Source: Amphiscolops sp. MND2022 (Eukaryota). From it: DNA of 64,000 nt. Below are positions 7,864 to 63,357 of the stretch, piece after piece (the first letter of the stretch is position 1; every line of letters starts with the position of its first letter). The stretch is taken from the NCBI GenBank assembly GCA_964187785.1, contig OZ076409.1, forward strand, positions 41,418,001 to 41,482,000, written 5' to 3'. Below the pieces are notes generated by a model. The model had not been told where the DNA came from and made no database searches. It saw only the letters and a program-made list of their open reading frames with translations. Position numbers and translations under genes: made by a program.

Positions 7864-10800
7864 TCAATAAAGAACACTAGCTTTTCTCTTTTTCTTCGAG
7901 ATGGTTTTCACTGTAACCTCAGGAATAACAGGTGCTTCGGTTAATCGTCGGACGACTGGACTCATTGTGGGGGTTGAATCAGCTAATCCTAGTACACGTT
8001 TCACAGGAGTACCCTCGGTACTCGAACTATGTACAGCGGTTGGGCTAGTTGTTTCATCCATCACAATTCAAGACTTCTCTTTGATCCCTTCACTTTTGGC
8101 GTAATACCCCTTGAGTGAAGACAATAATGCAGTTTTAAGAAAGTGAGTCGAGGACATGATATTCCAAACAGAGAATTTCCTCTTGAGAATTAATCCAGGG
8201 CCTCGGTCAACCAGTTCAAACGCTCGTGGCAATGCAGCGAAATCCATAAATAGGCTCTCACACTTCTGAATTGATGACAGAGAGCACTGAAGACTCCTGA
8301 CACAGGAAGCAAATTCAAAATTGCTGGACTTCAACCCGGGGATTGACAAGGCAAACGACACGGGAACGGGGCAAGGTCCTCGTAAAGCTTGGCAGCATGT
8401 CTTGAAAAAGTGAAACAATTCAATCCGGCATTGGAGTTCATGATGACAGGAAAAAGTTCCAAGCCTGTCTTTAACTGTAGGGAAATTCTCACTACGAAGT
8501 TCGGTGATGAGTGAACAATATTCACTCACTAAAACGGGTTTCGTATGTGGGGCCATCCATTTCTGCTGAACAAAATACCCCGCAAGGTTCTGGATAGCGT
8601 CAGTGTAATCTGCCTCTCGTCCACTACGAACCACTGGTTCATAAAATGCGGAGAGCCCTCGCACGAAAGCAGATGTGGCCACTTTCGTCAGCAACAAATT
8701 GATAAAATGTTTGTAGAATGCAAAAAATTGGCCTACAAATTGTCGGGGAGTAGAAATCTTGGTCTTAGAAAGCAAATTAGAAAGGTCATGATCTTGAAGC
8801 ATGTCAAGAACAGTCTTGAAAGGCAGGGTAAAATCGTCCATGTTGAGGCTCATATTCTTGTCCCAGTCAGATATTGCCCCGAGAAAGGGACCCGGTAAGA
8901 TCTTTTGCAGCTGGGTGTATACAAAGACGCAATACTGATTGTAGAGCCGAAATCCGCCTGAGGTCGAACCAAAGACTTCACTGATGTCGAGTTGTTTAGA
9001 ACAAGAAAATAGTATTGGTTTTCAAAAAGCCATAGTAATAATATGGAGACAGTACGAAGAAAAGAAGAAACAACAATCAAGAAACAGAAAGGAACCGAAG
9101 AAACAGGATGTTGGGAAATTACTTACACACTGGCTAAGGATGTTTTTTGTAACAAACAAACGAGCAATGAAGACCTTGTCGCGCAATAACAAATCGTCCA
9201 TTCCAGAAGGCTGAAACAATTATTACAGGCAGAAAAATTACAGATACCCGTACAGTCAATGGACAAAGAACAACGCGAAACTGTTATAATACAATTGAAA
9301 TTGAATATGGAGTACAAACTTCTTGCATATGGGACCGGTATGTGGGATTCTTCTACTGCACTTCAAATGTTGTAGCACGTTGTCCCAGTTCGTGATCAAG
9401 TGGCCCATTACTTCAACAGCATGAGGCATATCGTAACCCAGATCAGTCACAGTCCAAAGTACAACAAACAAAGTGAATCAATGAAGAAACAGAGTTACAA
9501 GAGCACGTGCAATAAAAACAAAGATGTGAAAGAGCATGGAAAGAAGTCAATATGATGACTAATTATTCACGTGCAAAAATATGGAAACACTAGAATAGTA
9601 GTTCATGACTAATCATATTGCACAATGAGTCAAAATGTCGAGAAAAATAAATAAATTACCCAAATTTGCTGCATTATACCGCAAACCTTCACCAGTATAA
9701 AGAGAAGAAAGTGTCCATCTGAGATACGAAAAAGATGAAAACGCTGTAAATACAACGTATAAGGTCTCTGTTGAAAGAAAAAATCACTACAATCCCGAAA
9801 TCCCCTAGAATTCGTAAAATTTGTCTCCAATCGGGTAAGAAATATAAAACCCGGAAAAGTGGCCTGATAATGTTAAAATGGATCAAACAAAATATCATCA
9901 AAGTACCTTGATTAATCGAAAAAAAAATTAAAACAGTTGTGGGAGAAATAAAGAAACAATACTAACCTGTTTTGAAAATCTGGAAGTGATGACATCCAGG
10001 GGCTGTCACAAGCGGATTGAAGCCGCATTAGGAGGAAGTCGAGAAGGCTCCTGAAGTCAAATCGATCCCGGATGTGCACCGAAGGGACTAACAGTGTACG
10101 TTCCAGATCATCAGCGTCGATTTTAGGGAATGAACACACTCTCTTGCGCTGTGGTAACACTCGCGTCACGGTCTAAGTGATCCTGGGATCGAAGCCTGTG
10201 AGAAAGAGCAGGTGGGCATCTTTCTCAACTAGTGCGAAGAAGCCACTTAACAGGGAACGAAGAGAGCTGGGGGAGCATAATCTCCCTGGAAATACTCCGA
10301 TGCACAGTCCATACAGCGAGTTGTCTGCCCAGAAGTGCACAAAAAGTTGAGTTTCATCGCCATATTCTGTAATTCTGAGGGAGTAGCTTCCAGATCTCTC
10401 GATTGATATTATGCAGAATGACAACAACTCCCGGAACATGTAGGTTGAAAGTCCCTGAAGAAGAGGGAGACAAGTAATGAACCACGCAAGATGGACCTTA
10501 AACAACTCCCGTGATCAATAGCATGCAAATACTTACAAAGACTCGATGAAGCCGCCAGTCGTGCTGAATATTAGGCTCGGTCGTCTTCGTCTCCTTGACC
10601 AAATCATGCCAGAGTGCAATCATTGTTTCGAGCTGACCCCCCCCGTATGAGCCCAATCTTGAGCAAGTTCAATTGGGACAGCATGTCTTTACTGGGATCA
10701 TCAACTCCCCTGACCTCGGCTTGATCTTGCTGACCTATTCGTGAATAGTAGTCCCCAAGATTTGGTGCAACAGGATACTCCCGCTTTGTGCAGTCCTTGT

Positions 10801-12231
10801 CTTACTTTAGGGCCATCCCACTGAGTTCTTTGCGCTCTCTATCGATGAGGGGAAGCCCTGGAGTCTCCATCCTTATTCTGTGCTCCTTAACGAGGTGGCC
10901 ATCAGTACGATAATGGTGTAGTATCTCTATTGGACCTTTTGTCATCAGAGGACAGTTCCACTAAGCAGACCCGACATCTGTACTTGTGTGAGTACCTGGA
11001 TGCATCGGCAGGGGCAGTCGCGAAGAATTTTAAGATAGGGTATTTGTGATACATCCAACCTGCTAACACGTATCGTGGCTTGGCTCTTTTATAAGTGGCC
11101 ATGGTGGCTGGGGGCTGCTTCTTGCGTTTTGAAGTTTTGAGGTCTGGCGATTCCATTTCTTCAGCTGAAGAGAGACCTGATGAGGATTCAGAGTCAAAAC
11201 TAGAATCTGAGTCAGAAGAGCTTGTTTTCACCCTTGGCATCAGTCCCTTTAGTGGAAGCCTTGGTCTTCAGTGCCTTGCTGATTGCTTGTGGAGACTTCT
11301 TTTTGTTTGGGCTAGTTAAACCACTCAGTCCCACACTGTTGGTTACTCGAGAGAGGACGTTATCGCCCGCTTCCTCTGCAGCTTCCGTCAATATGCGCTC
11401 GAGTCTTGCTCGATGTCTCCGGGGCTAGTGGCGACGATGGGTGGTGATTCCGAGACGCTGGTTTTCTTCTTTTTCAAGGTAGGAGATGTGAATGAGTTGT
11501 CCCCCTGAACTGGAAAATTGGTCAAAAACTTCGTAAAAGGAGAGACTCTTTTACTAGCAGCAGTTGGTAGAGGAAATTTCTGAATTAAAGATTGGACTTG
11601 GTCTGAACGTGGTGAACAGGGAACGGCAGTACAAAAGAAGTACTTGATAAGAGACCCCCCACTGCGGCGTTGACAAGGGAGCTTACCTCTTGTTGAGCCC
11701 AATCGCCTGTGGTTGGAGTTTTTCCTGATTCAACAGTTTTATCATTTTCCACTGGGTCGACAAATTCGTTGAAATTGCCCAATATGAGGACTTGTGGAAA
11801 TAACTCTGGCGGGACATCATTTTCGTTTATCTGCGACTTTCGAGAACAATCACTTAATAGCAAAGATCGCTGGGTTACTGGGGCTTTATTGGCTTTGGGA
11901 GGATTAACAGCATTGCGTTTCAATTTAGCTGGGGAAGAATCTGAAACAAAATTCCTGAATTGCACTGATGTCGATAACAGAAAACAGTAACAGGAAACTA
12001 GTATTTCCGCTTGAAACTTGGGAACTGGAAAATGACAAATCGATAGATAGTCGACACTAAATGTGAGTTTGGCCAACTTGCATTTAAAATCTGTCAATCA
12101 GAAAAATCAACCAAATTCAAGCTTACCGCATGATGTAGCAGTTTTGGACGTCCTGCAATCAGCTGATCCTGATGACCTCTTTTTGGGGGGAGAGGCTTTC
12201 GCCGCGAGGAAGAAATCCGAGACCGAACCAT
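7864..12231 (-). pseudogene. Antisense multi-exon accessory gene of element A (BED-type Zn finger, hAT-transposase-like), decayed
   Basis: KFF...KYRCRVCLVELS plus frameshifted EILHHYRTDGH at ~10880-11040. Fragments 10173-10505, 9912-10169, 9256-9471, 9022-9219 and 8068-8853 are homologous to B exons. Intron 10536-10455, donor at 9966, acceptor at 9211. Confidence 0.8.
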
Positions 12232-13317
12232 CTCCAGGATAAGAAAGATCGTTGGAAGCAAATGAATGTTATTATGACGAAGAATTAAATATTCTGTCTA
12301 ATTAGAGTATCGAAATTTAAAGAAGTATCTATATTGGAACTAGCTAGAAAGTACGAAAATGAGCAAAACTGGAAATTTAAAAGTTTGGAAAGAGAGAGAA
12401 TTGACGAAATGACATAGATACTGACCACAACTGATACCATAAACAACCACACGATGCGACGTGGCTTACGGCTGAACATATTACTTTAACATATTTGCGC
12501 AAATACTGTGCGCTGATTGGTTGAAATAATTGGAACCGTTCTAACCTGCCAGGGAGATCGGTATTTAATAAAGCATAACTGAGTTCATTCACATATGCAT
12601 GCTGCGCCGCCGCCTAGTGTCAGTTCAAAGAAATGTGCAAAGTGAAACGTATCTTGCAGCACAACGTGAACTGGTATTGACCTAAAGGGAAAAAACATCT
12701 CATGACCTTATGCATCGCTACACTATTATGCAGATGACAGTGTATCATATAGTAGACATCATGATGCTGAAAAAAAAACAGAAGGGGTGAAAGTTGAAGG
12801 TAAAGGAGTATAAACTCAATCTTTCAAGAATCCCTATACCGTTTAAAGTACGTATTTGTACGGAACCTTTGTTTTCATAAACTCTTCCTTTCTGAATACC
12901 TTTAATTATTTGAATCAGAACTACATATTGAATCAAATTTCAAAAAATTTGCAAAACTCAAATAATAAAAGTTGAGTTGTCAAAATTCGTTATGCAAATT
13001 TTCATTCATATTTGTTTACAATCAAAATGTTATGCCTTTGTCATCTTAAATGGAAAGTTCACACATTTATTCACCAAATATGGGAATTGTGAAGACAAAT
13101 TTCATTCTGTTGTGGAGCTATTTGAATAAATTTGAAACATAATCTAACGCTTACCGCAAAATTACCGGGAAACGGGTAAACAAGAGAGGAAGATGACTCG
13201 ACAAGATATCTACCGTTTTCGGAAAACCCTGGAGCACAATCAAAGTGCGATGAAAAACAGAAGGAATTCATTCAAACAAAATTTTCTGAGGAAACTAGTT
13301 AAAACTTTGGAACCCAA

Positions 13318-14444
13318 ATGGGCAATAAAGCACCCAGAAGCTCTCACCGCTTTACTATCGACGAGGACATGCAGTCCATCTCTACAAACTCTGCCGGATT
13401 GATAAACATATCCAGTGACTCTGGGGAAGAATTTGTGACTGAACAACCCTGCTCGGAGCCTATAGATCAGAGATTCAGAGTTGGGGGGCCACTTAATAAC
13501 CCCATGACAGCCTTTGTCAACGAAGACGCCGCTAGATTGATCGCAATAAGCGAATCTAAAAAAAAAGAGAAGACTCCGCGATAGATATCACCGGCACTGA
13601 TATTGAAAAAGAAAGCCTTTGCAAGATCTTGGAACATACTGATTTACCTAATATCTCACCAGTTTCGTTCTTCGAATTGAGTGGAAGCGACAGTGGAGAT
13701 ATACTACTGAACGCTAATTTTGTTATTGTCCCGAGAAACAACTACGGTAGACCAGTGCTGACAGTTCCGCCCGTGCAAGCTGAAAGAATAACCAGGCAAA
13801 TACCTACCTGACTTGATGCTAATGTCAATAATCCTCCTAGTAACGTCCAAGTAAATGGACCAATCAGGCCTATACCTATTGCACCCTTGGTGATACCGCA
13901 TGAGATCCCTCAATCAAACTATGCTCATCCGTACAACAGGAAAGGAATACTGCAGACACCCAGGGCAGACCAGTACAATGTGCCGGGTGCTCAATTGAAT
14001 TTACCAAACTTAGTCACCCAAGTTATGGGACAATACCCATATGACATAAACACCGGGATTAAAAAGCAAACGCACATCCTAATCTCGCATATTACTATAA
14101 CGCCAACGGCCAGTAACCCAAGGCACCCATAGCAATTTAGAGGTGACTGGCGGAGGCGCTGTCCGAAGTGACAACGCTGCAGAGCAACAAAAGATCCCCT
14201 TATGAAGACAGCTTAGCCCTCCAGTTATGCAACATGTTCAGGGGAATTGTCACTGGTGCGGTAGAACCTACGATGAAGTTGCCTTGGATGCAATATCGGC
14301 CTACGCGGCAGCAACTGAATACCCGACGAGAAAATAAGAGACAGGAACATTAGATCGCGGGCTTACTTAGATGGGTTCAAAGCAGCACCCATTTGCAACG
14401 AAAATGCTGGCCTGACACAGCCTAAGTTTGTGTCGGGACCGTAG
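13318..14444 (+). pseudogene. ORF3 of element A (SIM-like motif, CxxCG), decayed, ends inside the 3' LTR
   Basis: LINISSDSGEE near the N terminus. At ~14245-14444: GNCHWCGRTYDEVALDAISAY, then (frameshift) RSRAYLDGFKAA...AGLTQPK, homologous to B ORF3. Confidence 0.7.
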
Positions 14445-15848
14445 TGCAGCAATGATGGCAAATGTCTCCCCACCTACAGCAAACTAGGGAAAACTCATCA
14501 CTCCTTTTGTATGAAATTATGTACAACTTTTGGATATCAGCATTGTTGGAATTTTTTACCATTACAGTTAATAATAGTTGCTAGGTAATAGTTGCTAGGT
14601 AATGTAAAATACAAGTGATTGATATATTTCTTACGTAATACCACTTTACATGAAATTCCATGAATTGAATAAATTATTCATGACTCGTAGGGCGCATTAA
14701 CACGTACGGACTTCGGTATTTGGATTAATCTGCTGTACTAAGTTTGAAGTATACTACAGTACAATCTCGCATTTTCAACATTTTAATTACGTCATTTAGA
14801 AGTATGACTCATCACGTCGACTTAATCATATGTGCTGTAATGTGTTGGAGTTAATACTTGTACTAGAAATGAGTCATACTACTTGTTGCTATAGTGATGA
14901 CCAATCAAAAAGCAGGAAAATATTCGTCATGCAGGAATCTATTTATAGCAGTGATGTAACATGCAAACCTATTTTTATATTACATTGGGTGCTAGTTTTA
15001 GTCATTACATAAGTATGATGTAACCATGACATTCCGAAAAATTGGTTGTCATAATACTAAAATTAGCCCAAATAAAATGGAGAGTTGAAAGACCATAAAA
15101 ATAATTCATTCAACAAAAAAACTTTCAGACCGATCGGACCTTCTTTTCATTTTCTCAATCTTCTTTCTAACCTCGATAATCTAGCATTATGTACATTTTC
15201 TTCGACTTTTTTTCAACTCTGTTGTACTTTACTTATCATTCTGATTGAAATTCTTCTCTCCAAAACAATATTTTAACCTGACTAATATGGGAAAAAAAGA
15301 AACAGAAGATCTAGACGAGCACAATCACCCTCACTTAAGAGAGTTGAATACGTCTGAAATAGAAACATCACAATGAAATGAAACTGTTATTGAAACTTTG
15401 AGTAATTTGATAAATGTTAGTTCAGTTAGGGACGAAGAAGCAGTTTTAGACAGTGGAACACAGAATTAAAATCAAATGCAAAATTGGACTCAAAGAATAT
15501 CTGATAAGACGAATAAAGAAGTAGCAAACGTAAGGAAAGAAATGAATGAGAAGCTAGAGAAAATGCTGAAAGACATGAAAAATAGCAGAAGAACACAATC
15601 CGTACCAAGCAGGAGATATCATGGGCGAAACACACTCCGAGTAGGAACCTCAAAAAACATAGATAACGAAGATGATGAAAAAAACGCATCTGAGCCAGAA
15701 AATCAAGAAAGCGAAATACAGGATAATTCTTTCAGGCCATCTAATATGAATAAACTTAGAACGCCAATGCAACCTTTGATTAAACAAAACATCGATTTAA
15801 ATGACTCTGTGGTCATATATGAGGACCGCACAGGAGAGGATTATCACA
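14413..15848 (+). repeat. 3' LTR of element A
   Basis: Starts tgacacag, ends gattatcaca, followed by TSD aagga. Confidence 0.93.
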
Positions 15849-47619: not shown

Positions 47620-49251
47620 TGTCGCAGGCTCCCGCCTGCGATGGGAACTTTTACACCATCAATTACAGCTGTTTTCGCGCCCTCCCAGGTACTCTACCAA
47701 TAAACTAGAGGAAAGGACCATGTGTCCCATTGTCATGACGGGACAAAAACTTCAAACTGAATTTGTAATATTTTTACGGCATGTCTATTATTCTATTTTC
47801 AGTTTTGACAGCCTTATATATAAAATCTTGTGCAAATTATTAATCGGAAATACCATTTGGTTAGTTGAAAACTACGAAGTTGATTTTGATACATTGATGC
47901 ATGTAAACACTGTATGTTTAATGTATTAGCTAAGAAATTGGACACCAAGGCGTACAGGAAAGGAAACGAGTTCAAATGTTTCCTCTCCTGTCTCGCTGGA
48001 CACGCAGTCCGTCCAAATTCTTAGCCAATCAGAACACGCCATTCATTTCATTCACTGTGCGCAGTATTCTAAATTAAAGGACTCTAAGGCCACGCGCCGT
48101 CAGCTAGTAGTAATTTGCTGCCTATTTACGGCAAACGGACACTGAGTCCAAATTAAAGTAAAGTGCAATTTACAGTGGTAAATAAAGGCTATGATTGGTG
48201 TTTCTAATAAATACTCGTTTTGATGAAGATTACTGGACCATTTGTACCATTTGATGCTAGATATTAATAATTTACATGAATACTCAGATTAATGAGTTGG
48301 TACATGTAAGTTATGGTTGATCAAATGTAATTGCATGTAATGTTGCTTAACCTCACATATGAAAGGCCTTGAGGGATGCTTGGACCTACAATCCTTCTAT
48401 ATATGGAATTGTTGAAGGCGCTTGAATAAATCACCCCTTTGAAGTGACCCTTTCGTCATGCCGCCTTCATGGCTATAAATAGTAGGTGCTATTTTTAGAT
48501 AGCTGTGAAGGCTATTTTTAGAACGTGACCCTCATTATTTTGCAAGTCATGTAAACCTGAGTATATATACCGTGGACCCTAGGTCCCAAGGACTTTTTTC
48601 AATTTCCTTGATACCGTAATACTCAAACTTGTTAAAATCGTTTCAACATACTCTGTTTGCAAGCCTGAGAACTTAATTTAAATTCTTACCTCTTGCAATA
48701 AACTCTTATGCCTTCCACAAGAAGACAGAAAGCGAAAGCTAGAAAATCCAAAGAGATGGACATGTTGTCCGATATGGATAATTTAGACGTGATGATAGGG
48801 AGTGAAAATCCTTTAGAAAGAGAGTTAGCAGATGTAATAGACCAATCTTCCATTAATGGTGACATAGAAATTGGTAGTCACTCAAGAAATGATCTTGGAA
48901 ATTTCATTCAAGGAAATGAGCCTCATGGTCGAAACGACATAAGACAATCCTTTGAAACCTTTTCAAATGAATTTAATCTTAGGTTATCTCAAGAGATGGA
49001 TTCCATGATGGCCATGGTACATAGTCAGATAAATAGAGCAATCAGTACCGCCATATCAGAGAAGGTGTTACCGGAGATTCAGAATATTGTGAGTTCAATG
49101 TCTTCCTCTGGGAACAGGGACACTGAGATGAGTATGTCTCCTAGTAGTCAGGAAAATAGGGAAAATCCATCTGGCTTGAAAACAAAATTATTGAAAAAGG
49201 ATTCACGGTCCGTTGGTGATTTGAGAGACACCACGGGACGTGGCTCTTACA
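47620..49251 (+). repeat. 5' LTR of element B
   Basis: tgtcgcagg...ctcttaca. Candidate TATA box tataaa at 48474. Contains the gag ATG at 48708. Confidence 0.97.
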
Positions 49252-49265
49252 TGGTGACAGGAGCT
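49252..49265 (+). promoter_or_regulatory. Primer-binding site TGGTGACAGGAGCT
   Basis: Immediately follows the LTR CA and is identical to the element A PBS. Confidence 0.85.
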
Positions 49266-50380
49266 AACGAAGCCCAGCAGCCTATACCTGAATTTCTCAC
49301 TGGACGAATCCACTCAATCCCGAACCTAGAGAGACAGCAATCTAACCACAATTTCTCTTTGGACACCACTCTGCCAGCGCCAGAACCAGAGGTCACAGAG
49401 CCACCTCAGGACCCGCTCAATAGATTGGCTGATGTACTAGTCAATTTGCAAAACAAACCCCAAACGATGACTATCCGGCCTGTCCAAACAACCCCTATGA
49501 CGTTTGACGGAAAGAGTGAGAAATTCGAACTCTTTGAAGATTTGTTCCACACAATGATCAAAATGCAACCGGCCATGACAGAGCAAATGAAAATTAACCA
49601 TTTCCATTCACTGCTCAGGAAAGGAGCCTTGCAGACCTTCAGGAACATAAACTCAATCAACCGCCAAACACTCGAGGACGTGCTGATCATATTCCGGAGA
49701 AAATATGTCAAACCGGAATCCCAAGCAACGGCAAAACACAAATGGCATCGGCTGACTTTCGATCCGAATACCATGAAACTGCCGGATTTCTTAGAAGAAC
49801 TGAACCAGGGGGCAGAAAAAGCTTTCGGTGAGAATGCAAAAAGCATGATTGACAGCTTATTGTATGCAAAACTGCCTCCAAAATTAAAACGATCTGTCAA
49901 TATGGCCCGCCTGGAGAACGGGACATAAGAGGAAATCGTCGCTCATCTTGAAAGAGAGCTTGAACTCAACGCATTAGAAGAGTCAGACGATTTGCCAATC
50001 GCCACAATGGCCTCTGCGTCCACCAGTAACAACAATCTGCTCTCTAATGGCATAAATACTAATAAGGACGCACAATGCTCTTATTGTAAAGCCACAGGCC
50101 ACTTTTATAAGAGCTGCCCCAAATTGAAAAAGAAGAAAGAATTGGAGGACAAAAATGGCAAAAAGCCCCAACGTCCCACATACCCAGAATGTCCTACTTG
50201 CGGAAAGAAAAATCACCCCGTTGAAAGATGCTGGAAAGGGGCTGGAGCACATCTACGTCCCAAAAGGACAAGACCCGAAGATAAAGCCGATGAAAACTCC
50301 GGCGATGAAAAGTTGTCTAAAAAATCAACTAACCCCGAAACTGCATCTTCGAGCCAATCAAACCCACGAAAAACGGACTC

Positions 50381-50387
50381 AAAAAAC
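50381..50387 (+). promoter_or_regulatory. -1 ribosomal frameshift slippery site A AAA AAC
   Basis: X XXY YYZ heptamer in the gag frame just before TAA. The -1 frame is open from 50387 into pol. Confidence 0.8.
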
Positions 50388-53300
50388 TAATTTCGCCACG
50401 ACTCCAAATATGTAACAAGATGTCAGTACGACAGTACGTCATATCTGACCCTGCAAACATTACATATAAACAAACTCAAAACGACACCACAGGGATGCCA
50501 TCGACTGTCTGGCAGCAGCAGATGGCCGACGCCCGCAGAGAAACTCAATATATCATCCACAGTGATCATCCATACTTATATCGACGGAACAGTAACCGCA
50601 ACGACTTGGAAACTCACTTTCGCCCTTTAAAAACTGTCGAAGATTATAACCCTCAATACTATGACCCCGAGTATGGCAAAGACCCATACTGGGACGACGA
50701 ACTATATGACAAAACAAATTTACAATTTCGAAACGAAGATTACCCTCCAACTGACGACGAGGATGACCCAGACATCGAAGACAACACACTGTCTCGGGCC
50801 CTCATTGATCTTTGGCAGCCGAACTTTGAGGCAAATATACAAGAAGTAGACGCCATACACACACAGGAGGACCATAAGGCTCCTAATAGTCTGTTAGATG
50901 AGACAGCCTTCTTACACCTCCTAGTGACCAAAGAAGGAGAATTACCATACGTTCCCCTTTCAACAAACCTTGGACTTAAATTCAAACGACGAATGCTCTA
51001 TTTCCCAATGGACTTTGGGGAATTAACTCTAGATGGCCTGATAGATACTGGAGCCCACTCCAGTGCAATCCCGGAGGCAGACCTCAGGAAAATACGCCTG
51101 TTGGCCCCTCAATCCATTGTAAAAGAAGGTCCCGCCCCATCCTTCCAAATAATGGTCGCAAATGGAGACTTAGAAACCCCAAAAAGCACAGTCGAACTAA
51201 AATTCGAAGTGGGCGACATAGAATTTCACGAAATTTTCATTGTAATGGAAAAACTGTCAAGCCCCATAATTGGACTAATATTCCTTCAAAGGAACCACAC
51301 TGTCCTGGACATGCGCCAAGGTATACTCAACTTTCCCTACTTCTCGATGCAACTCAAGACGGCTGACCATAAATACTCAAATGTTTTGGAACCCATCCTC
51401 AATCCTGAGGATGTCACAATTCCGCCCAATGACCATGTGGTCATACCCATTCAATCACAAATTTACGCAGAAAATGCAGTTACGGGCATATTGCAACCTA
51501 GCGATCTTCTGCACGAGGAAGGCGACATAACCTTCTGTGCCGCCATAGTCACACTACATGAAGGGGCTACGAGAATACACGTCAACAATTTCACTGATCA
51601 ACCCTACAAAATAAAGAAAGGGATGCACATTGCAAACTTTTCAGTGATGACCCCTGAACAGATGAAACACGTCAGGCCAATAGACCCAGTGTCCACCTGG
51701 CACTTACTGAATGAAAATGAAGACGACGCTATTTATTATATTAGTAGCCTTCTTAAAGCTAACAGAAATAATGACCAATACGAACAATATTGGTTCCCGA
51801 CGCCTGAAAACCCAGGGGACGAAACGACCCACACCCCAATACAACAAAGAATTCTCAAAGAATTACAAGATCTGCAAAGTTTAGAACAACTCAACCCGCA
51901 CGACGATGCGGAATCTCGTCGAAAATTCCTCAGTAATTTTGATTGGAAGGATTCAATGTTACAACAACATGGAATCAGACAAATAGAAACTCTATTAGTG
52001 GAATTCCATGACATCTTTGCGCGCCATAGATTTGACATTGGTGTCAATGAGGAATTTACGGTCAAACTGACCCCAAAAGACGAATCACCTGCCTACAGTC
52101 AGAGCCTACCTACACCAGTCAACCTCAAAGAGGACATATTGGTCGAACTGGCGTTACTTCATAAATATGGTATTATAACGACATTACCATTCTCAAAGTA
52201 TGCCAGTCCCATCTTCGCGCAGAAAAAGCCCAATGGGAAATTGAGACTGTTGGTTGATTTGAGGAAAATAAATAATCTCATCTCAGACGATTATATCAAC
52301 AACAATCACCCAGTCAGTACCCTGACGGATGCGGCGCAACATATGGCAAGCAAAAAGCTCTTTTGCAAACTTGACTGTTCTCAAGCTTATCATTGCCTTC
52401 CTATGGCAGACCAGAAGTCGATTGAAATGCTAGCATTTAACTTCGCCAGCAGGACATTTGCATATAGAAGATTAGCCCAAGGACTCAGTAGAGCCCTGTC
52501 GGCCTTCTCCAGTTTCATGAGGGAATACTTGGATCGTGTCATAAAAGCAGACCAATGTGCTCAATATGTGGACGATATTGGTGTTGCGGCGACAGACGCC
52601 GACCAGCTTATCGTCAACTTAAGAGCAACTTTCCAATGTATCAGAGAAGCAGGATTGAAATTGTCCATGCACAAGTGCCATTTCGGCGCTACTGAAATTG
52701 ACTTTCTTGGGAGAACCATTACACCTGAAGGCGTAAAACCCCAAAAAGAAAGAATCACTAACTTCTTGGAAAAGACGAAATTCCCAAAGTCCAAGAAGGC
52801 CTTACAACGCTACCTTGGTTTCCTCAATTACTACAGGAATTATATTCCAAGGCTATCCGAAAAACTAGTTCCCTTCTTCCAATTGCTCAAAAAGGATGAA
52901 AATGTACTAGTTACGCAAGAGCTAGTTGAACAATTTAATGAGATCAACCGCGATTTAGACCGATGTAGTCAATTGGCGTTGAAACAACCTCTGCCGAACA
53001 AACAACTGCTCCTTATGACTGACGCGAGTTTTACAGCAGCCGGTTACGCCATATTAACCGAAGACGACCCAAATCAAAAATACACTTCTGTTAAAAAGTC
53101 CTATGCGCCGATTGCATATGGATCCAAGACTTTCACGCCTTCTCAGCTCAAAATGTCGATATATGCAAAGGAATTCCTAGCTATATATTATGCATTTAAG
53201 GAGTTTGGACATATCTTCTGGGGAACACCTCAACCCGTGATTATCCTCACAGATAACAAATCGGTCACAAGGTTCTTCCAAACAAAGATAATTCCACCGC

Positions 53301-55494
53301 CTCTCTGGAATGCTTGTGATTTTGTCATTCAATTCAACTTCATTATAGCTCATATTCCAGGCAAAAACAATACAGCGGCAGACTACTTGTCCCGTATGGA
53401 AATGGACCCTAGTGAAAAGTTAGTCCTGAAAATACGTGAAGACGTCGAGACCCGACCGATTGAGGTCAATGTTCAATCAGCGGGAGTATCTGAAGAAGAA
53501 CAAGTCTTCTTTACCGACACAGACGACGAAACAGAGCAACAGATTTGGGAACGGAAACAACAATCCAAAAGGGGCCTCATAGTCCCTGAGGCAGTAATCC
53601 AAATTGACGCTATATCAGAAAATACCGTCGAAGAGATTACTAACTTCACACAGAAATTAAGAAGAACAAATCAGATACTGCTTGAACAATCCAAAGACCC
53701 GATTCTCCTCCAATTGAGGGCGAAACTGCAAAATGAAGAATATTCTGAAGAAATCCTTCAACGGGATATTCGGTACAAGTATTACTTGAACAACATAGAC
53801 AGAATAGTCCTCAAAGACGAAATAGTGACGAGACAGTACTATGATGAAACCGGACAAGTCAAATATCATCAAATCTTATTGCCAAAGCATTTACTCAAAG
53901 AATTATTACAAGCAATACATGGCACAGCACATCGACACCCGGGCATTTCTAAAATGCTACAGGAAATTCGTCAAAAGTATTACTACCCAGGAATAGCAAA
54001 ACACGTCAAAAAATGGGTAGAAGGCTGCGAAACATGTGCTAAGGACAAAAGGGTCCCCAACACAGTTTTCACCCCAGAATTACTGAATTTACCTGAATGG
54101 GACCTAGGCCCAGAAGATGCCATGCAAATTGATTTATTGCCAAATTTACCAACTAGCGGCGGATACCAAACGGTGATGACGGCAATAGATGTATTTTCAA
54201 GATATTTATTCGCCTACCCGCTAATTGAGGCAACAGCCGCAAACGTAGCCAAGGTGATAATTGACATCATGACGAAACATTCGTATTTGCCAACAACACT
54301 CATCACGGACAAGGGATCTGCATTCACATCAAAAATTCTAGAAGAAATTACTGCAATACTGGGGATCACATTGAAGTGTGCCACTACTAAACATCCGCAA
54401 ACTATTGGTAAACTTGAAAGTACACATGCCTCTTTAAAAACCAACCTAAAGATAGCCTCAGGAGAATACCGTCGTCAATGGCACAAATATTTACCACTAG
54501 CTGTGCTTAACTATAACACTACTTATCACGCTAGTATTGGATTGGTTGTGAGCCTAGCAAAGTCTTTCATGGACGAATTCCCTACAACGTCTTGGATCAC
54601 AAATTAGGAAATAATCCTAACAAAAATTTCCTACCGACGACTGAATTCGCGGAAGAATTGCAGCAGAGGACGCAGATCCTCATTGATCAAACCAAAAAGA
54701 ATATTATGCAGTCGTATTTAAAGTACAAAGAGTACAACGACCGCAAGGCCAAAGCGGCTCCGCTACAAGAGAAAGACTACTGTTTCGTTCTCCAACCGAA
54801 GGCGGATAGCCAAGGATCTAAAATACCATTCAGGGACTTCCGATGGATTGGTCCTTTTGTTGTTCAAAAAACTCTACCAATTTACAATTATATAGTGCGT
54901 CGTTTAAATACGAATAAAACGCAAATCTTGCACCGGATCAGGCTCAAAAAATTTGTTCCAAATGCCCCATTAGAGGACAAATACGAAGAGAAGAAATTAC
55001 AGCCCGATGAAGAAATAGTAATACCACAAGATGATTTGTATACCATCTCATGGGAGGCGGACTTTGAGTACGAGCTATTCGAGCCGAAGACAAATGATTG
55101 GCCACACACGGCCACGCGTCTACTACAGGACGCCGCGAACGGAGAAATCGACTATTACGTCACCGAGAATGAAAGCAGCAGCGTAAACGAAAGTGAACGC
55201 AGCAGCGGGAGAATGAATGACGATGACGTCAACGAGAATGAAGTACGGCCACGATCGGCCAGCAGCCGTGACGCGTCGTCCCCTCCGAGCGAATCGCCTA
55301 GTAGGACGCAAAATGAAAATGACGTCACAAATGATTTAGAGAATACGGAAATTGCTTCAAAAGGAGGCGTAGATATTGCCGTGCCCGGAATATCGGAAAA
55401 TGGAAAAGATGAAGAAACTTCTAGCCCTAGAGGAGGGAAATATAATCTTCGACCTAACCCCACCCCCAACTTTACTGATGAATACAGATACTAG
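50387..55494 (+). CDS. pol: pol of element B (protease, dUTPase-like domain, RT, RNase H, integrase with GPY/F), frameshifted at 54536-54545
   Basis: LIDTGA; LRLLVDLR, LDCSQAYH, YVDD; LMTDAS, AKEFLA, LTDN; H..HPG...CETC, IDLL, ITDKG, KLES; RWIGPF; YNLRP. A duplicated attgg shifts the frame in the integrase C-terminal part. Confidence 0.97.
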
Positions 55495-55712
55495 TCAGAT
55501 AAGTAAATTAAAGTCCCATAAGTCTCTTGGACTAAATTAATATTTTTGCCGGGACTACTCTGACTATGAACTCAAATCTGGAAATAACAGAATAAATTTA
55601 CAAACATGCAAAGAAGTCTACAGGAACTGCAACCTCTAATGAAATAAAAGTAAATCAAAGTTCATAATAAATACAAAGAAACAAATAGAACACAAATGTA
55701 CTCTATGTACAT

Positions 55713-58700
55713 TTAAGATTTAGAGGAGGATTGCGCAGCATTGCGTGACCCGGAGTCTTCTTTCACTGGCTCGGCATTCTCAAAGGCTACTTTGCACTTC
55801 ACTTTTCCAGGGGATTTCCTTCGCTTACTATGAGTAACTGGGGAAGTAGACCCAGAGGCAGAACGACTGGAAGATGGAGACTTCGACTTCTGCGTTAATG
55901 CCTTATGCTTTTGACAAAGAATCTTGTAAAAATCAGCTCGACCGAAGACATCAACGTGCGTCCAGGGATCTCCGGCCACATTCCCAGTATGAAACTCCTG
56001 CTCAATTTCTCGAAGTTTATTGAGAGAGTCATCCTTCGTGCAGACAGAAACGGCATCTGGTGCTCGAGCTAAGTAAGATTGGGCTGGCAGTAGAACGTCG
56101 GCTAACTTACATTAAGGCCTTTGGGCATCGACATCATGGAACCGAATGGGTGGGAGCAAAGGAGTGTTTTCAGTAAGGCACATACAGCTCAATTGGAAAA
56201 GGCGATAGAGGTGCACCCGGTTACGAAGTTCAGGCATCACTGACAGGAAGTCGACCATGTCAGAAAATCCATTTGGGGAATCTTTTAAAGCCTCATAACT
56301 TTGACGAAAATGCCCAACAAACTCCAAATATTCGTCACGGCAGTCGTTCTCAGATGACCCTTCCATCCAGCCTCGCAGACTGAAACTTTGATATAAGGCC
56401 GCAAAGCAGAAACTGGCTTGCTCTGTGGGAAGGCAAAGGAGGACATTCGGATCAAAGCTCGCCATTCCGACTACGAGATTGGAATTCAAGCTGACATGAC
56501 CCAGGAAGTTCTGAAGGAGGGTAACAAGATAACTCCTAGCCTTTGCGACAAACTTCTCCTTCACTGCTTCAACTTGTTCGGACAAATTAGGAATGGGCCC
56601 CTCTCGGTCGCTGTTGTCACGTCGTACCTTAGCTGTGCTAGCTGCGTCTAAATCTTGCTTCAATCGCAGTCTAGTGAGGAAATCTCTGGAGGATAGTTGG
56701 CGGAGCTCAGCAGTGCGAAGCACTGGTAATTGAGTCCAATCAGTTTCTTTAGGCGAATGTTTGGGCAACAAAGCCCGGTAACAGAGCTTTCTGACGAAGT
56801 TGTTTAGTTGCCCGAAAGTAAAGAAACCAGAGTCTCTGTGCCCAGCCAGACTTCGTTCAAAGCAAACGTTGTCTAAACAGTAATTTCAATAATGGAGTCG
56901 GAGCTGACAGAAACTTACCCCGAATAGGAACTTAGGGAATCCTTGGCCTTCAAAACAAAATGGACGAAACGGAGATACTTACAATCATATATGATCCGTC
57001 CATAGAATTCGAGCTTGACCAAGAAGAAGTCGTCACAAATGATCTGCCACTCCAGGCTTTGAGGCTAAAAGAACAAGCGTCCCTGACAACATCTGGTCTA
57101 ACCCCCCTACAAAAGTTGAGCAAAGCCCAAACCAAACACTGAAATACGTTCAGACCTTGTTTTTAACTCCGATCATCTCATAGCTGGGCGCAATTTGAGT
57201 AATGTGGTCCAGGAAGGCTGACCAGTTCTTGATAATCTCCGAACAAATAGTGGGGATAGATCGGAGGCGCAAATCATTACTGCTAATGGCCTAAAAACAA
57301 CTTCATGATGCAAGGACGAAATCACAACAACCCGGTAAATGAAAACGGGGTCTTACCTTAGAAAGCTCAGGCGCTGCGGCCATCCAAGGCTCATCAAGGC
57401 TCTGAGACAAATAGGCCAACAAGTATTTAAGCTGGGTGTGGAAGTTGATGCGTCCAAATACACTTCCTTCCCGCTTGTGCATGAGCCTGTGTATCGACGT
57501 GACTTGGTATCGAAAGGGGTACTCGATACTTTTCTTCATCAACCCCGACTGTTCCACAGTCCGGAGAACGTCAGAGGTACAACCAGACATACAAACTATC
57601 TGTGGGGCGGTGGACAGCAAGGACAAGAGTCGGGCTATAACAAGCAGCTGATTGCGATCTGGATCAGAAGCCAAACTATATTGCATCAATTGGAGCTTCA
57701 CGAGAAATCCCGACTTCCAGTAACGTAGTGAAGCTATCTCCATGCCTCCCTGTGGCTCAAATTCAATTGAATATTGTCCAAAATCGTTGACAGACTGGGC
57801 CACGTCCTCCATGCCACGCAAGAAAATGTGATGGAAGATAGCCTGAAATAGTTAATCCTACATGAGAATTCGCTAACCCAAGATCAAACAACAGAGCCCC
57901 CCTTCTCTTACCCTATACAAAAGATGAGAACGAATATAACACGTACCGTAAGCGTGATGGAGCTCCAATCCAGATCTCCGAACAACTCCTGGTGGTTGGT
58001 GAAATTGCCCACTTCGGACCAGAGCCCCTGCAGAAGGGTAATATCGCCCGAGTAAGGGACAAGTCGTCCAATCAGTGAAATTTGGGTCCAAGTCGGACAT
58101 CGTCGGGACTTGCTAAACCCCCAGCGCTTGCCATGTACTCGTCGTAGAAAGGGTAACGTGGGCCAATATCTACGAGTGGTGCAGTTTCAAACAAGGGCTT
58201 TTCCTTCTGGAGTTCGAAGGCAGTTAAGACGTGTCCGTCCTTCCCCCTGACAGCGTGAACAGTAGTGCCTGTGATCTTGTCGAGTTTGCCCAGGTGTTCA
58301 TATCGCCAGCGCTGATCCTTCCTCAAATGACTCTCATTTTGGTAATGGCGGACGATTTCACGTGCCCCTTTGGAGAAGATGGACACGTTGGTCTTACAAA
58401 TTTGACAATAAAATTTGTACTTGTTGTGCACGGGGTCAAGTGGGCCAGTAACAAACACTTTGGTCCATTGGATGCCTTTAAAATACGCGGGCTTCATCAC
58501 CTTCCCCGGTCGGCTCATTAACTTGCGTCTCTTCCGTGGGGGACTTCGATTACCTGGCTGATGAGAAACCTGAGGTCCAAGCGTGCTCAGAGGTTCGTAA
58601 TCGCCCTCGCTATATCCTGGACTGGGGATGACGGACTTCCCTAGGGTTACCTCGCGTTCCGCGGTACTTGTGCTGGGATGCATTCCAGCGATGGGCGTAT

Positions 58701-59723
58701 TAGGTCCAGAATCGGTTTCCAGACTAGTGACAGTTCCTCCTATCTCTTCATCAGTAGAGTAAGCCCCGCTAGTGTTGCCATCAGTAGTGTAGCCCTCTCC
58801 ATCTGACTCTCCTCCCGAGCTATTAGCCGTACTTGTGTCCGGGATACTCCCACGGATCAGAGCTTTCCGCAGCTGGCTGGCACTCTGTCCCTTCCCCCCG
58901 TGAATAGCTTGCAGAACTAGTGAGCGCATAGAGTGCAAAGATGACTTGACTGTTTCGTCAGAAATAGTCTTCAAAACAGCATGAATCTGTGGCTCACTAA
59001 ATGCCACCGTTGTGTGCCCCCTGGGGAGCTCAATGGGTGTATTTTGAGTGAAATACTTGCGGAGCATAAGCCTCCCGTTGGCAGACAATTCTGTAGGGAG
59101 TGTAGGTTCTTTGTGACCGGTTGTTGTCAGAGGCCTACTTAAACTTTCTGATGTAATTTTTTGAGCTTCGCTTGGGTCAGCAAGAAGTTCGGGCCCCACA
59201 ATGCTAGAGGTGGGCCTATCGGTCAATCCGTCCTCCCCTGCACTGTCAAGGATGTCCTCTATTTCACTGGCGGAAGTTTCAAAGTAATTTCGTTGGGGTT
59301 CTTCAGGCAAATCAAAAGCATTTGAATCAAACAACCGTGAGGATCCTTCCCTTCGGCATCGGCCCTTCTGGTTTTAGGTTGTTTGGCAATAACGGCCTCA
59401 GATTCAGAAGCTTTATCCATGCTAGGTCCTGAACATTTTTGTGGGGAGCCATCGTGAACAGTTGCCAAGAACGTTATATCCAGGCTAGGATCAAGGCTGG
59501 CCATAGTTCGCAAAGTTTGGCTTGCGAAAGTAGTCATACTCTCTTCAGTGTTTCCACTACTTGAGGAAAAGTTAGAAGGTGGTCGAACATCAAGGTGTAA
59601 TCCCGCGCTGTCTCCTTCGGCTAATTGGCGCTGCTCGCTGGGCGGTTGATCCATCAGGCTTTGAGTGGTTACGGCAGGGGAAGTAGTTTGGGTCTCCTGT
59701 GTTCCAACAGGATGTTCAGACAT
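55713..59723 (-). CDS. Antisense five-exon accessory gene of element B (~1,200 aa; BED-type Zn finger plus hAT-transposase-like body; lesioned copy)
   Basis: Exons 59723-57947, 57842-57357, 57290-57156, 57064-56983 and 56872-55713, joined by GT-AG introns of 104, 66, 91 and 110 nt with compatible phases (0,0,0,1). Motif W..VF...FYCQICK...IVRHYQNESH. Lesions: frameshifts near 59340 and 58087, TAA at 56112-56114. Confidence 0.85.
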
Positions 59724-60436
59724 CGTGTCTAAACAAAAAGAAATAAAATCAAGCGGGAACCTTCCTGAATATGAGTCCATTACCGCGCTAAAAATCTTCC
59801 GGAAGTAGATTGATATGAACACAAGTGAATGCTTGAGTTACTGGACAGGAAGTATGTGAACGAAATGAGAGTCTTGATCAAACCTCAAATTAGTTCAAAT
59901 TTTCTCAAGAAAATTAAACGAAACCTAGAACCTACTGACCTGTTAAATTGTGACTGCTGGAAGGATCGTGAATTGGATCTGCCATGGGACTCGATGGAGC
60001 ACGTCAAGGGATAATTTCTTCAAGGTGGCAAACTGGAGCTAGTTGAGAGTGGTTGGAGGGAGCCTGAAGGTCGACTGTCCGTTGATACCCGGAGAATCTA
60101 TGGGGATGTGGATGAATGGACACTGAGTCCTGGGATGAAGACGAGAAGTAATTAAATGAAAAATACAATAAAATGACTCAAAGACTAAAGGACTGACTAA
60201 GTACTGATGATTAAATACTGGATAATACGAGAAGTGGATAATACAATTGAATGGTAAAGAATTGGAAGAAGAATTAGAAATGTGACAAGATGTCAAGATT
60301 GGAGTTCGTGGCTATACAGTTTGGTGTCCAACTTACAAGTATTTACGATTTATGGAGATATGTGGATAAAGTCTGCCAGCGATATCTACCTTTTCCATTA
60401 ATTTCGAAAACTTTGTTATTTACAAAATTATTCCAT

Positions 60437-60478
60437 GATTTTATTTTATTTTATTTTATTTTATTTTATTCTATTTTC
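60437..60478. repeat. (ATTTT)n microsatellite
   Basis: attttattttattttattttattttattttattctatttt. Confidence 0.9.
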
Positions 60479-60974
60479 AAGGTCATTTTATATCATTCCT
60501 TATACGGGTTCGCGACCTTGAGAAGCCATGTTAGCTTGGGAGAAATTTTGCTGCTTTCTTATTGGCTGAGCATATCGATGGTGGACGACGTGGCTGACCG
60601 TCATATCTTCACCCACTTGAAATCCTCAAGTATCTGATGAGTGTTAATAAACACTCGAGACCGCGCTCTTAAGTTAGAAGTGTTAACTTAGTTGTTGATA
60701 GATAGTTAAGGCGGCGCCGACAATTACAAAGCAACTCTGCGGCTTGATGAAAGAATTCAAAAGGGAAGAATTTTGTTGTCGAGAAGTTATTACTTGGAGA
60801 GGTAGCGGAACCCCGGGAAAAACGAAACGAAGAGACTCACGGACTGTCGGAAATAAATCCGCCATTCCTCTCAGTTTCATTCTTGAATTCAGCCGTCCTC
60901 TTCAAACATTTCTGAATTGAAAACCACTAAATTCCTTCAAGATAGCGAAAAAAATATTCAAAAAAAGATTCGAT

Positions 60975-61814
60975 ATGAATAGCCTTGTCTCGCCTTTGTA
61001 TGACTCCGAACCCGAAAGGACCTATCCGGAGGACTTCCAAGGAGCTGCCCCAGGAGATGGGATCATTTACATTTCAAGCGACGAAGAGGAGACAATGGAA
61101 TGCAGGAGCGTTTCCTCGATAACCGATTTCTTGTCCTCCTCGGAGGATGAGTCGGAAGAAGTTGCTCAGATGGCCTTATGCGTCGAAACACAGATGTCCG
61201 AGCCCATAGCAATTCCCTACACCTCTTCTTCTGCCGCGAATCAGGCAAACGAACACAGAAGGCCAAACTTGCCTCCGTTTCCTAAGTTCGACCAGACTTA
61301 CTTTAGCCTGGGGAGAGGCAATGGGCCCCTAAGGGCAGACAGTAGAATTAAGCGGAACCACCCGATAAACTTGTGCCGCAATCTTGTCCCGATGGTCGAT
61401 ACGCCACTATCCCCACCAGATGCAGACAGAGGACAATACTGCCCTCAACCGACATCGAGTGGGTCTTACGTATCAGATGCCCCGACGATTGATTCTATGG
61501 CCAATCATTTTAATGACTTGGAGATCGGGGTGTCTACAGCTGAATCGACCTATTCGGACTGTGTGATCTGTGGTAAATCAACACATCAAATACGCGAGGA
61601 AGCTGCAGATGATTACATCAGCTAGACGGTCGCAGTGGGAGAAACGCTAGCGGAGACGCAAGCAAGAAAGAGAGCAATTCTAGACGGGATGACAGCCGGA
61701 ACTTTTCTTCTCATGCCAGGGGGAGTGTCGCAGGCTCCCGCCTGCGATGGGAACTTTTACACCATCAATTACAGCTGTTTTCGCGCCCTCCCAGGTACTC
61801 TACCAATAAACTAG
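60975..61814 (+). CDS. ORF3 of element B (unknown function; internal TAG at 61623-61625; reads through the PPT into the 3' LTR)
   Basis: The 216-aa ORF continues in frame after TAG as TVAVGETLAETQARKRAILDGMTAGTFLLMPGGVSQAPACDG...PIN*, homologous to A ORF3. Confidence 0.75.
61718..61725 (+). promoter_or_regulatory. Polypurine tract AGGGGGAG
   Basis: Directly precedes the TG of the 3' LTR. Confidence 0.8.
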
Positions 61815-63357
61815 AGGAAAGGACCATGTGTCCCATTGTCATGACGGGACAAAAACTTCAAACTGAATTTGTAATATTTTTACGGCATGTCTATTATTCT
61901 ATTTTCAGTTTTGACAGCCTTATATATAAAATCTTGTGCAAATTATTAATCGGAAATACCATTTGGTTAGTTGAAAACTACGAAGTTGATTTTGATACAT
62001 TGATGCATGTAAACACTGTATGTTTAATGTATTAGCTAAGAAATTGGACACCAAGGCGTACAGGAAAGGAAACGAGTTCAAATGTTTCCTCTCCTGTCTC
62101 GCTGGACACGCAGTCCGTCCAAATTCTTAGCCAATCAGAACACGCCATTCATTTCATTCACTGTGCGCAGTATTCTAAATTAAAGGACTCTAAGGCCACG
62201 CGCCGTCAGCTAGTAGTAATTTGCTGCCTATTTACGGCAAACGGACACTGAGTCCAAATTAAAGTAAAGTGCAATTTACAGTGGTAAATAAAGGCTATGA
62301 TTGGTGTTTCTAATAAATACTCGTTTTGATGAAGATTACTGGACCATTTGTACCATTTGATGCTAGATATTAATAATTTACATGAATACTCAGATTAATG
62401 AGTTGGTACATGTAAGTTATGGTTGATCAAATGTAATTGCATGTAATGTTGCTTAACCTCACATATGAAAGGCCTTGAGGGATGCTTGGACCTACAATCC
62501 TTCTATATATGGAATTGTTGAAGGCGCTTGAATAAATCACCCCTTTGAAGTGACCCTTTCGTCATGCCGCCTTCATGGCTATAAATAGTAGGTGCTATTT
62601 TTAGATAGCTGTGAAGGCTATTTTTAGAACGTGACCCTCATTATTTTGCAAGTCATGTAAACCTGAGTATATATACCGTGGACCCTAGGTCCCAAGGACT
62701 TTTTTCAATTTCCTTGATACCGTAATACTCAAACTTGTTAAAATCGTTTCAACATACTCTGTTTGCAAGCCTGAGAACTTAATTTAAATTCTTACCTCTT
62801 GCAATAAACTCTTATGCCTTCCACAAGAAGACAGAAAGCGAAAGCTAGAAAATCCAAAGAGATGGACATGTTGTCCGATATGGATAATTTAGACGTGATG
62901 ATAGGGAGTGAAAATCCTTTAGAAAGAGAGTTAGCAGATGTAATAGACCAATCTTCCATTAATGGTGACATAGAAATTGGTAGTCACTCAAGAAATGATC
63001 TTGGAAATTTCATTCAAGGAAATGAGCCTCATGGTCGAAACGACATAAGACAATCCTTTGAAACCTTTTCAAATGAATTTAATCTTAGGTTATCTCAAGA
63101 GATGGATTCCATGATGGCCATGGTACATAGTCAGATAAATAGAGCAATCAGTACCGCCATATCAGAGAAGGTGTTACCGGAGATTCAGAATATTGTGAGT
63201 TCAATGTCTTCCTCTGGGAACAGGGACACTGAGATGAGTATGTCTCCTAGTAGTCAGGAAAATAGGGAAAATCCATCTGGCTTGAAAACAAAATTATTGA
63301 AAAAGGATTCACGGTCCGTTGGTGATTTGAGAGACACCACGGGACGTGGCTCTTACA
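61726..63357 (+). repeat. 3' LTR of element B
   Basis: Same length (1632 bp) as the 5' LTR at constant offset 14106, with no difference seen by eye. Confidence 0.97.

Follow-up and report, generated by a model that had tools for sequence, protein, structure and literature searches.

ORF3, a conserved accessory protein with a SUMO-interaction-like motif, is encoded across the polypurine tract region and into the 3' LTR of Ty3/gypsy retrotransposons

Two ORF3-bearing elements in the window

The window analysed here, a stretch of 64,000 nucleotides from contig OZ076409.1 of Amphiscolops sp. MND2022, was shown to contain two LTR retrotransposons, designated here as elements B and A (Table 1), of a lineage of 14-16 kb Ty3/gypsy LTR retrotransposons that carries a third open reading frame (ORF3). 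Element B is bordered by the target-site duplication CTTAC (47615-47619 and 63358-63362), its LTRs are identical at 1632 of 1632 bases, and a PBS-like sequence (TGGTGACAGGAG) starts at 49252, directly 3' of the 5' LTR. The order of its pol domains (protease, dUTPase-like, RT, RNase H and integrase) is that of Ty3/gypsy elements, and the structural features of this group, i.e. TG...CA LTRs, target-site duplication, PBS and polypurine tract (PPT), were observed, the PPT being purine-rich in B only. The dUTPase-like domain is located between protease and RT, at about 51400-51650 (Pfam PF00692, 23.1 bits compared with a cut-off of 22). The first gag ATG of B (48708) is situated inside the 5' LTR, about 545 bases in (48708-49251 and, in the 3' LTR, 62814-63357); the LTR of this element therefore codes for protein at both ends, the ORF3 tail at one and the Gag head at the other, and A exhibits the same layout.

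The ORFs of B (gag, pol, the antisense ORF and ORF3) carry at least one break apiece, although its LTRs are identical, as would be expected of a defective copy moved recently by proteins acting in trans. B may be such a copy, or its breaks could instead reflect assembly or sequencing error.

Table 1. Features of elements B and A, with positions in the window
Feature	Position	Strand	Remarks
Element B, Ty3/gypsy LTR retrotransposon, 15.7 kb	47620..63357	+	LTRs, target-site duplication, PBS, pol order
5' LTR of B	47620..49251	+	
gag and pol of B	48708..55494	+	gag TAA at 49926-49928; pol frame change near 54535-54607
Broken antisense ORF of B	55713..59837	-	CxxC...H finger; C-terminal part resembles hAT transposase ends
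In-frame extension K-I-A-K-K-I-F-K-K-R-F-D before first ATG	60939..60974	+	conserved in relatives
Candidate non-AUG start ATA	60942	+	A at -3, G at +4
ORF3 of B, first ATG to stop, 279 codons	60975..61814	+	TAG at 61623-61625
SIM-a-like motif IIYISSDEEE, residues 30-39	61062..61091	+	pattern match, conservation
Predicted helix after acidic stretch, residues 60-75	61155..61199	+	pLDDT 77-84
CxxCG (CVICG), start of folded C-terminal domain	61560..61574	+	possible metal site
RKRAILDGMTAG helix, A-xxx-G-xxx-G spacing	61665..61700	+	predicted homodimer interface in P0263
Polypurine tract AGGGGGAG	61718..61725	+	read as part of P-G-G-V
3' LTR of B	61726..63357	+	first 89 bases complete ORF3
9-bp hairpin with 4-nt loop, LTR start	61727..61748	+	read as S-Q-A-x-A-C-D
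Element A, older relative of B	1832..15848	+	LTRs 92% identical; target-site duplication AAGGA; PBS start as in B
Broken antisense ORF of A, weak homologue in equivalent place	8068-11267	-	CxxC finger
Broken ORF3 of A	13318..14444	+	frameshifts and several stops; 3' LTR from 14413
ORF3 motif LINISSDSGEE of A	13399-13431	+	
ORF3 motif AIDIT of A	13578-13592	+	
ORF3 motif CHWCG of A	14248	+	
ORF3 motif RAYLDG of A	14358	+	

The antisense ORFs of A and B are weakly similar (BLASTP E values of 1e-4 and 3e-4). The C-terminal piece drew clusters of hAT dimerisation domains (Atlas 0.93, with low recognition), and its likeness to hAT transposases is treated here as a lead only. In B, the antisense ORF and ORF3 lie head to head, separated by about 1.1 kb of non-coding DNA. 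A hAT-transposase-like gene may have been retained within this gypsy lineage, the antisense ORF being kept in both A and B.

Elsewhere in the window, a 2355-bp unit occurs as three tandem copies at 23424-30492, which share about 97.5% identity and all contain a 47-nt near-palindrome, and a short tandem array with a 67-bp period occupies 31131-31366. An Rfam scan of the 64-kb window returned no matches, including to the 2355-bp tandem units.

ORF3 represents a large family under protein-level constraint

All ORF3 motifs named in the original prediction were located, i.e. IIYISSDEEE, CVICG and RKRAILDGMTAG in B, and LINISSDSGEE, CHWCG and RAYLDG in A. The frame of B had been described as open from 60975 to 61814; it is in fact split between CxxCG and RAxLDG by the in-frame TAG. 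ORF3 of A is also broken, its motifs being spread over different frames, and AIDIT of A reads VIDIT in intact relatives.

When ORF3 of B, with X at the stop position, was compared with 493 candidates, 94 proteins matched at E≤0.01; these 94 are all unnamed and lack a Pfam domain. The closest relative, P0002, consists of 279 aa, is 98% identical to B and represents a cluster of 66 members. As predicted for intact copies, ORF3 is kept open in this cluster, all 15 listed members (of 40 read) being open across the position of the B stop, and the open 279-aa relatives are 95-99% identical to ORF3 of B. Other subfamilies, with 26-70% identity and clusters of 163, 128 and 80 members, are open over 260-285 aa. 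A 37-sequence profile identified 349 proteins among 6853 candidates, while a 48-sequence profile retrieved 603 representatives of 50%-identity clusters at E≤0.001 among 1.84 billion, 150 of which were listed.

DNA was obtained for two metagenome contigs (L001 and L002; two of 73 pattern matches), both of which carry an open frame. Identities at the first, second and third codon positions amounted to 0.50/0.61/0.33 between B and L001 (270 codons) and 0.48/0.57/0.27 between B and L002 (224 codons), values that represent a signature rather than a dN/dS estimate, as protein-based alignment favours positions 1 and 2. Third positions are saturated in both comparisons outside the block of PPT and hairpin codons described below.

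A search with ORF3 of A produced 11 relatives among 960 candidates, of up to 382 aa and with a normal end. Profiles of intact A-type and B-type proteins aligned over 70 columns (HHalign probability 96.8, E 2.9e-10), and these profiles indicate that the two families are homologous. Three fragments of the A copy ranked fourth to sixth, in the right order, among 2052 six-frame window fragments compared with the B-family profile, each being weak when taken singly (E values of 0.0083, 0.12 and 0.51).

ORF3 is therefore a real accessory gene, kept open and subject to protein-level constraint across a wide family. Its identification as a conserved accessory protein other than env, with a C terminus derived from the PPT region and 3' LTR, is supported. 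Hydropathy revealed no transmembrane stretch in seven of eight intact relatives, where the best Kyte-Doolittle 19-mer scored 0.73-1.44; the eighth reached 1.85, upstream of the conserved start. By hydropathy, no sign of the signal peptide and transmembrane anchor of an env protein was observed, and the N-terminal part is acidic.

Comparison with known families returned little. No Pfam family was matched by P0002, and five weak families (E 0.011-0.079) were obtained over 48 members; the PDB sequence search gave a single match (E 0.78), and no Foldseek match at E≤0.001 was found with either the whole model or the C-terminal domain. The best VIA Z scores, 4.8 for the whole model and 5.7 for the C-terminal domain (rmsd 2.6, 46 aligned), correspond to generic helical hairpins, and the best ESM Atlas hit for residues 185-279 (0.79) was not informative. 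Ten pattern matches in viral contigs included no ORF3 relative, and a SUMOylation consensus was present in one of seven ORF3 proteins. Several divergent subfamilies (P0081, P0084, P0087, P0088, P0190, P0213 and P0226) were found only on contigs of 0.5-4 kb, which could be transcript or metagenome fragments.

The C terminus of ORF3 overlaps the PPT, a hairpin and the 3' LTR

As originally reported, the V/L codon of ORF3 spans the LTR boundary in B as well as in A, base 1 of the 3' LTR being codon position 2 (61726, GTG, in B; 14413, CTG, in A), and the last 29 codons of ORF3 of B lie within the 3' LTR. The prediction that the C terminus is encoded by the PPT and 3' LTR stands for the LTR in both copies, and for the PPT in B, where eight of the last 10 bases before the LTR are purines; it does not extend to the PPT of A, with five of 10. 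Of the relatives counted, as judged from protein sequence alone, 41 have T-P-A or A-P-A at the corresponding place, with which no purine run is possible.

The hairpin at the LTR start pairs at nine of nine positions in each of the three DNAs (B, L001 and L002), G-U and G-C changes included. In A, the same register gives seven of nine pairs in the 5' LTR and one of nine in the 3' LTR, and the start of the 5' LTR folds worse than shuffled sequences (z +1.79). Covariation was mixed (n=252 proteins), with a V/T double change in three proteins, single changes in two and two, and an uncompensated T/A change in 22.

Third-position identity in the 12 PPT-plus-hairpin codons amounted to 0.83 and 0.67 for the two contigs. 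Given these conserved third positions, the PPT-plus-hairpin block, the most conserved part of the C terminus, is under constraint at both the nucleic-acid and the protein level, and the doubly constrained S-Q-A-x-A-C-D-G is accordingly weak evidence for protein function. In the part of the LTR after the hairpin, identity was 0.19 and 0.12 at third positions and 0.69 and 0.88 at second positions; coding constraint continues into the LTR beyond the hairpin. A single LTR thus shows a hairpin and a peptide constrained together.

A candidate non-AUG start upstream of the first ATG

The start of ORF3 had been placed at 60975, and the conserved frame was found to begin at about 60939-60942, 11-12 codons before this ATG. 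Among 23 relatives called at least eight residues upstream, 17 carry K-I-A-K in frame, four a variant and one a frameshifted version, while one has nothing alike; the 17 are spread over about eight subfamilies. The ungapped consensus of the extension reads K-I-A-K-K/R-h-h-x-x-R/K-F/Y/A. The first Met shifts (6, 10, 11 or 13 codons after the Ile) while the peptide stays, and no conservation was detected upstream of the Lys of the extension.

The homologous codons are AAG ATA GCG in B (60939), AAA ATT GCA in L001 and AAA ACG GCG in L002, so that ATA, ATT and ACG are each one base off ATG, each with A at -3 and G at +4. This is a context in which near-cognate codons initiate. The conserved in-frame peptide and the near-cognate codons in good context, as seen in three DNAs, of which L002 was lined up post hoc and L001 has an A-run at this place, suggest that ORF3 probably initiates at a non-AUG near-cognate codon, 11 codons before the ATG. 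Such a start would give a basic N-terminal extension, and the downstream ATG a shorter form. No clear equivalent of the extension was found in the degenerate A copy, and no description of near-cognate initiation in LTR retrotransposons was found in the literature searched.

Splicing into the Lys codon of the extension was considered as an alternative and rejected: the codon is AAG in B but AAA in L001 and L002, and none of the 17 K-I-A-K relatives has a Q there. An acceptor could lie further upstream of the Lys codon; in L001, a pyrimidine run ending in TAG is located 12 bases upstream of it.

Annotation based on ATG codons would thus truncate the proteins of the ORF3 family.

A conserved SIM-like motif in a probably disordered region

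The motif in the N-terminal part of ORF3, a hydrophobic core followed by Ser and acidic residues, had been likened to the SUMO-interaction motif (SIM) consensus, and the conserved motif indeed fits the published SIM-a pattern, i.e. the PML/DAXX/PIAS-type phospho-SIM class as given in the available text of PMC5825156. The pattern is matched by IIYISSD in B and LINISSD in A. Mean conservation of the ten motif columns was 0.74, compared with 0.26 and 0.32 in the flanks, and the core consists of I/V-I-x-I/L plus S-S-D with fixed spacing. AlphaFold2 assigned a pLDDT of about 50 to residues 21-50, with no secondary structure, and no Pfam domain covers them, indicative of a region that is likely disordered.

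The predicted conservation of the motif was borne out across the family. SIM-a was present in most members of 19 of the 30 groups formed at 60% identity from 201 proteins of at least 240 aa with CxxCG, and any SIM class in 26 of 30, where shuffles expect 3.1 (whole) and 5.7 (local), although SIM-b was relaxed to D[LI][TS] for this count, word-based searches may favour motif-bearing proteins, and the shared ancestry of the groups means that the comparison with shuffles overstates their independence. A stricter pattern allowing only V/I/L was found in 175 of 237 proteins with the N-terminal part, and most groups, at identities as low as about 26%, retain an aliphatic core. In A-type proteins there is a second SIM-like motif, VIDIT, which differs from SIM-b by a single conservative substitution.

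One lineage (P0366, P0253, P0275 and P0248), which includes a 46-member cluster with full-length members, has lost the hydrophobic core of SIM-a and kept S-S-D-D/E. Three of its four groups match SIM-r where other groups begin the predicted helix; SIM-r as a replacement for SIM-a is a weak lead, and there may be no replacement. S-S-D-E alone is a CK2 site, and hydrophobic-acidic motifs are also compatible with activation domains and CK2 sites. From the conservation and pattern of the IxISSDEE motif, ORF3 would, on balance, be expected to bind SUMO through it.

F-T-I-D-E-D precedes the SIM-like motif in L002 (575-595) and in A types (13348-13365 of the window), matching F-P-x-D-F of B types in position.

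The C-terminal domain is a predicted homodimer

AlphaFold2 models comprise CxxCG followed by two helices, with pLDDT values of 85-95 in P0002 (residues 201-240) and 83-98 in P0263 (residues 51-100). A homodimer model of P0263 (two copies of residues 33-137 with zinc) scored 0.46, compared with 0.10 for the best of three controls; the mark applied is attained by 21 of 30 solved pairs, as against none of 23 single chains (17 of 29 and none of 30 among eukaryotes) and by only one of seven pairs without an older solved relative, and P0263 is 35% identical to P0002, was modelled without an alignment and was given a zinc ligand outside the calibration. The dimer runs share at least 65% of contacts, with a partner pLDDT of at least 56, and at the centre of the interface lie A92 and G96, which correspond to the A and G of RAxLDG and are conserved in 72 and 70 of 78 sequences, respectively. 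The modelling supports, and does not show, that the C-terminal domain forms a homodimer through the RAxLDG helix.

CxxC and the C-terminal Cys are kept in both A and B types, and the AlphaFold models settle no zinc site. The invariant C-terminal Cys was rejected as proof of such a site, because its codons lie within the hairpin and its invariance (alignments A2 and A5) stems partly from the selection pattern. The conserved Cys and His residues (C134, H178, C196, C199 and C257) do not have RING spacing, no C3HC4 RING was recognised, and the Pfam scan of ORF3 returned no RING family.

Possible roles of ORF3

Taken together, these features allow a scheme in which an RNA that arises from an internal promoter or start, or by splicing, and ends in the LTR would carry ORF3. 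Translation from the near-cognate codon would give a basic-tipped, mostly disordered protein, the N terminus of which might direct it to the nucleus. This protein would bear a single SIM (A types have two) and dimerise through its tail; two SIMs would then be displayed per dimer, which might bind SUMO-modified chromatin proteins with avidity, so that ORF3 would act in trans by blunting SUMO-dependent silencing of the element. Expression from an internal promoter or an LTR-ending spliced RNA, and a nuclear location, are presumed in this scheme.

In Drosophila, piRNA-guided silencing depends on SUMO, and ORF61 of VZV counters PML bodies through its SIMs, according to the available text of 10.1101/533091 and PMC3161977, respectively; in the light of these precedents, a role as antagonist of SUMO-dependent silencing is the single likeliest reading. 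As a whole, the scheme of near-cognate start, SUMO binding, dimer and trans-acting relief is possible and is put forward tentatively, and the anti-silencing role taken alone appears doubtful. The loss of the SIM-a core in one lineage with full-length members speaks against the scheme. As no RING or other effector domain was found, there is no visible route by which ORF3 would destroy SUMO targets as ICP0 does; the specific version, a dimeric SUMO-binder with a non-AUG start that persists as ATA, ATT or ACG in deeply diverged subfamilies and that titrates or displaces SUMO-dependent repressors from element chromatin without a ligase domain, seems rather unlikely.

ORF3 could instead be a transcriptional trans-activator comparable to Tas of foamy viruses, with an acidic N-terminal activation domain and a CxxC helical dimer that binds the LTR or an internal promoter, the latter in the region between the antisense ORF and ORF3. 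A gene that abuts and enters the 3' LTR and is divergently oriented to the antisense ORF would suit such a protein, as would an acidic, low-confidence N-terminal part with one helix, a basic extension and the predicted dimer; however, the motif core is aliphatic with fixed spacing, the dimer domain has no strongly basic character, and most of its conserved residues map to the predicted interface. Acidic activators tend to be rich in aromatic residues and to show loose conservation, and trans-activation is considered unlikely.

Similarly unlikely is a SUMO-binding cofactor of the life cycle, which would recruit Gag, integrase or the antisense hAT-like protein to nuclear sites rich in SUMO and so serve nuclear entry, assembly or integration-site choice rather than counter-silencing. 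Such a cofactor shares the evidence of motif, start and dimer with the antagonist scheme, would need no RING or enzyme domain, and is in keeping with the retention of both ORF3 and the antisense ORF in A and B, but most Ty3/gypsy elements manage without one, as far as the available text of PMC7264820 describes them.

A quite improbable reading is that the motif is not a SIM but a CK2-regulated or other linear motif, and that ORF3 functions independently of SUMO, for example in RNA export, translation control or selfish maintenance. While the lineage that keeps S-S-D-D/E after losing the hydrophobic core is consistent with this, the aliphatic core is retained in most groups, and A types carry two different SIM-like motifs. 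That ORF3 encodes no functional protein, and reflects only nucleic-acid constraints (PPT, att site and hairpin) and chance, might be suggested by the two broken window copies and the 12 codons constrained as DNA/RNA, but is already contradicted by third positions that are saturated elsewhere, including the LTR after the hairpin, and by frames of 260-285 aa open in many subfamilies.

Relation to known systems and significance

Extra ORFs are common among LTR retrotransposons, and their function is mostly unknown. The available text of PMC7264820, PMC11963269 and PMC5408684 documents Ty3/gypsy elements with such an ORF between pol and the 3' LTR, and ORF3 constitutes a new protein family within this known kind. 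As in the plant elements with env-like sense ORFs, in Grande, RIRE2 and Retand with antisense ORFs, and in bdelloid rotifer elements with ORF3s, at least as far as these sources go, the extra ORF is family-wide; a long pol-to-LTR region with an antisense ORF is a further likeness, and rotifer elements also carry a dUTPase, as B does. Unlike the extra ORFs of these elements, ORF3 is in sense orientation without a transmembrane segment or a Pfam match to TRP28, GDSL or DEDD, runs through the PPT region into the LTR, and combines a SIM-like motif with a candidate non-AUG start. The TRP28 ORF of Retand and Grande was not recognised in ORF3, which is sense and has no PF04195 match.

The lentiviral nef gene extends across the PPT, att and U3 of the 3' LTR (PMC11076291, available text), as does ORF3 of B; the likeness is one of layout only, as ORF3 has no Gly2 for myristoylation. 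No sequence or fold match of Nef to ORF3 was found among the listed Pfam, PDB-sequence and fold search results. Foamy-virus Tas/Bel and MMTV sag are further accessory ORFs located close to or within the 3' LTR, and their expression relies on an internal promoter or on spliced RNA; ORF3 shares their position, but no sequence or fold match.

The herpesvirus proteins ICP0 and ORF61 of VZV, SIM-bearing antagonists of intrinsic defence that depends on SUMO, provide a parallel to ORF3 as a mobile-element protein whose SIM occupies a disordered region and for which SUMO-organised repression is the proposed target (PMC3161977, available text). In contrast to these proteins, ORF3 lacks a RING finger and has one main SIM, and could at most bind, not ubiquitinate. 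Its motif, as judged from the residues, fits the PML/DAXX/PIAS-type phospho-SIM class and is lost in one ORF3 lineage. The papers searched contained no description of ORF3 or of a SIM-bearing retrotransposon ORF3, and no LTR-retrotransposon counter-defence aimed at the SUMO step of silencing was found in it.

ORF3 thus represents a large unnamed family that offers three testable handles, namely the SIM-type motif, the helix predicted to dimerise and the conserved candidate start at a near-cognate codon. If SUMO binding and relief of repression were both true, ORF3 would constitute a counter-defence at the SUMO step of transposon silencing, and the antagonist reading, if true, would make it the equivalent, in a transposon, of the SIM antagonists of herpesviruses, although one that lacks a ligase domain.
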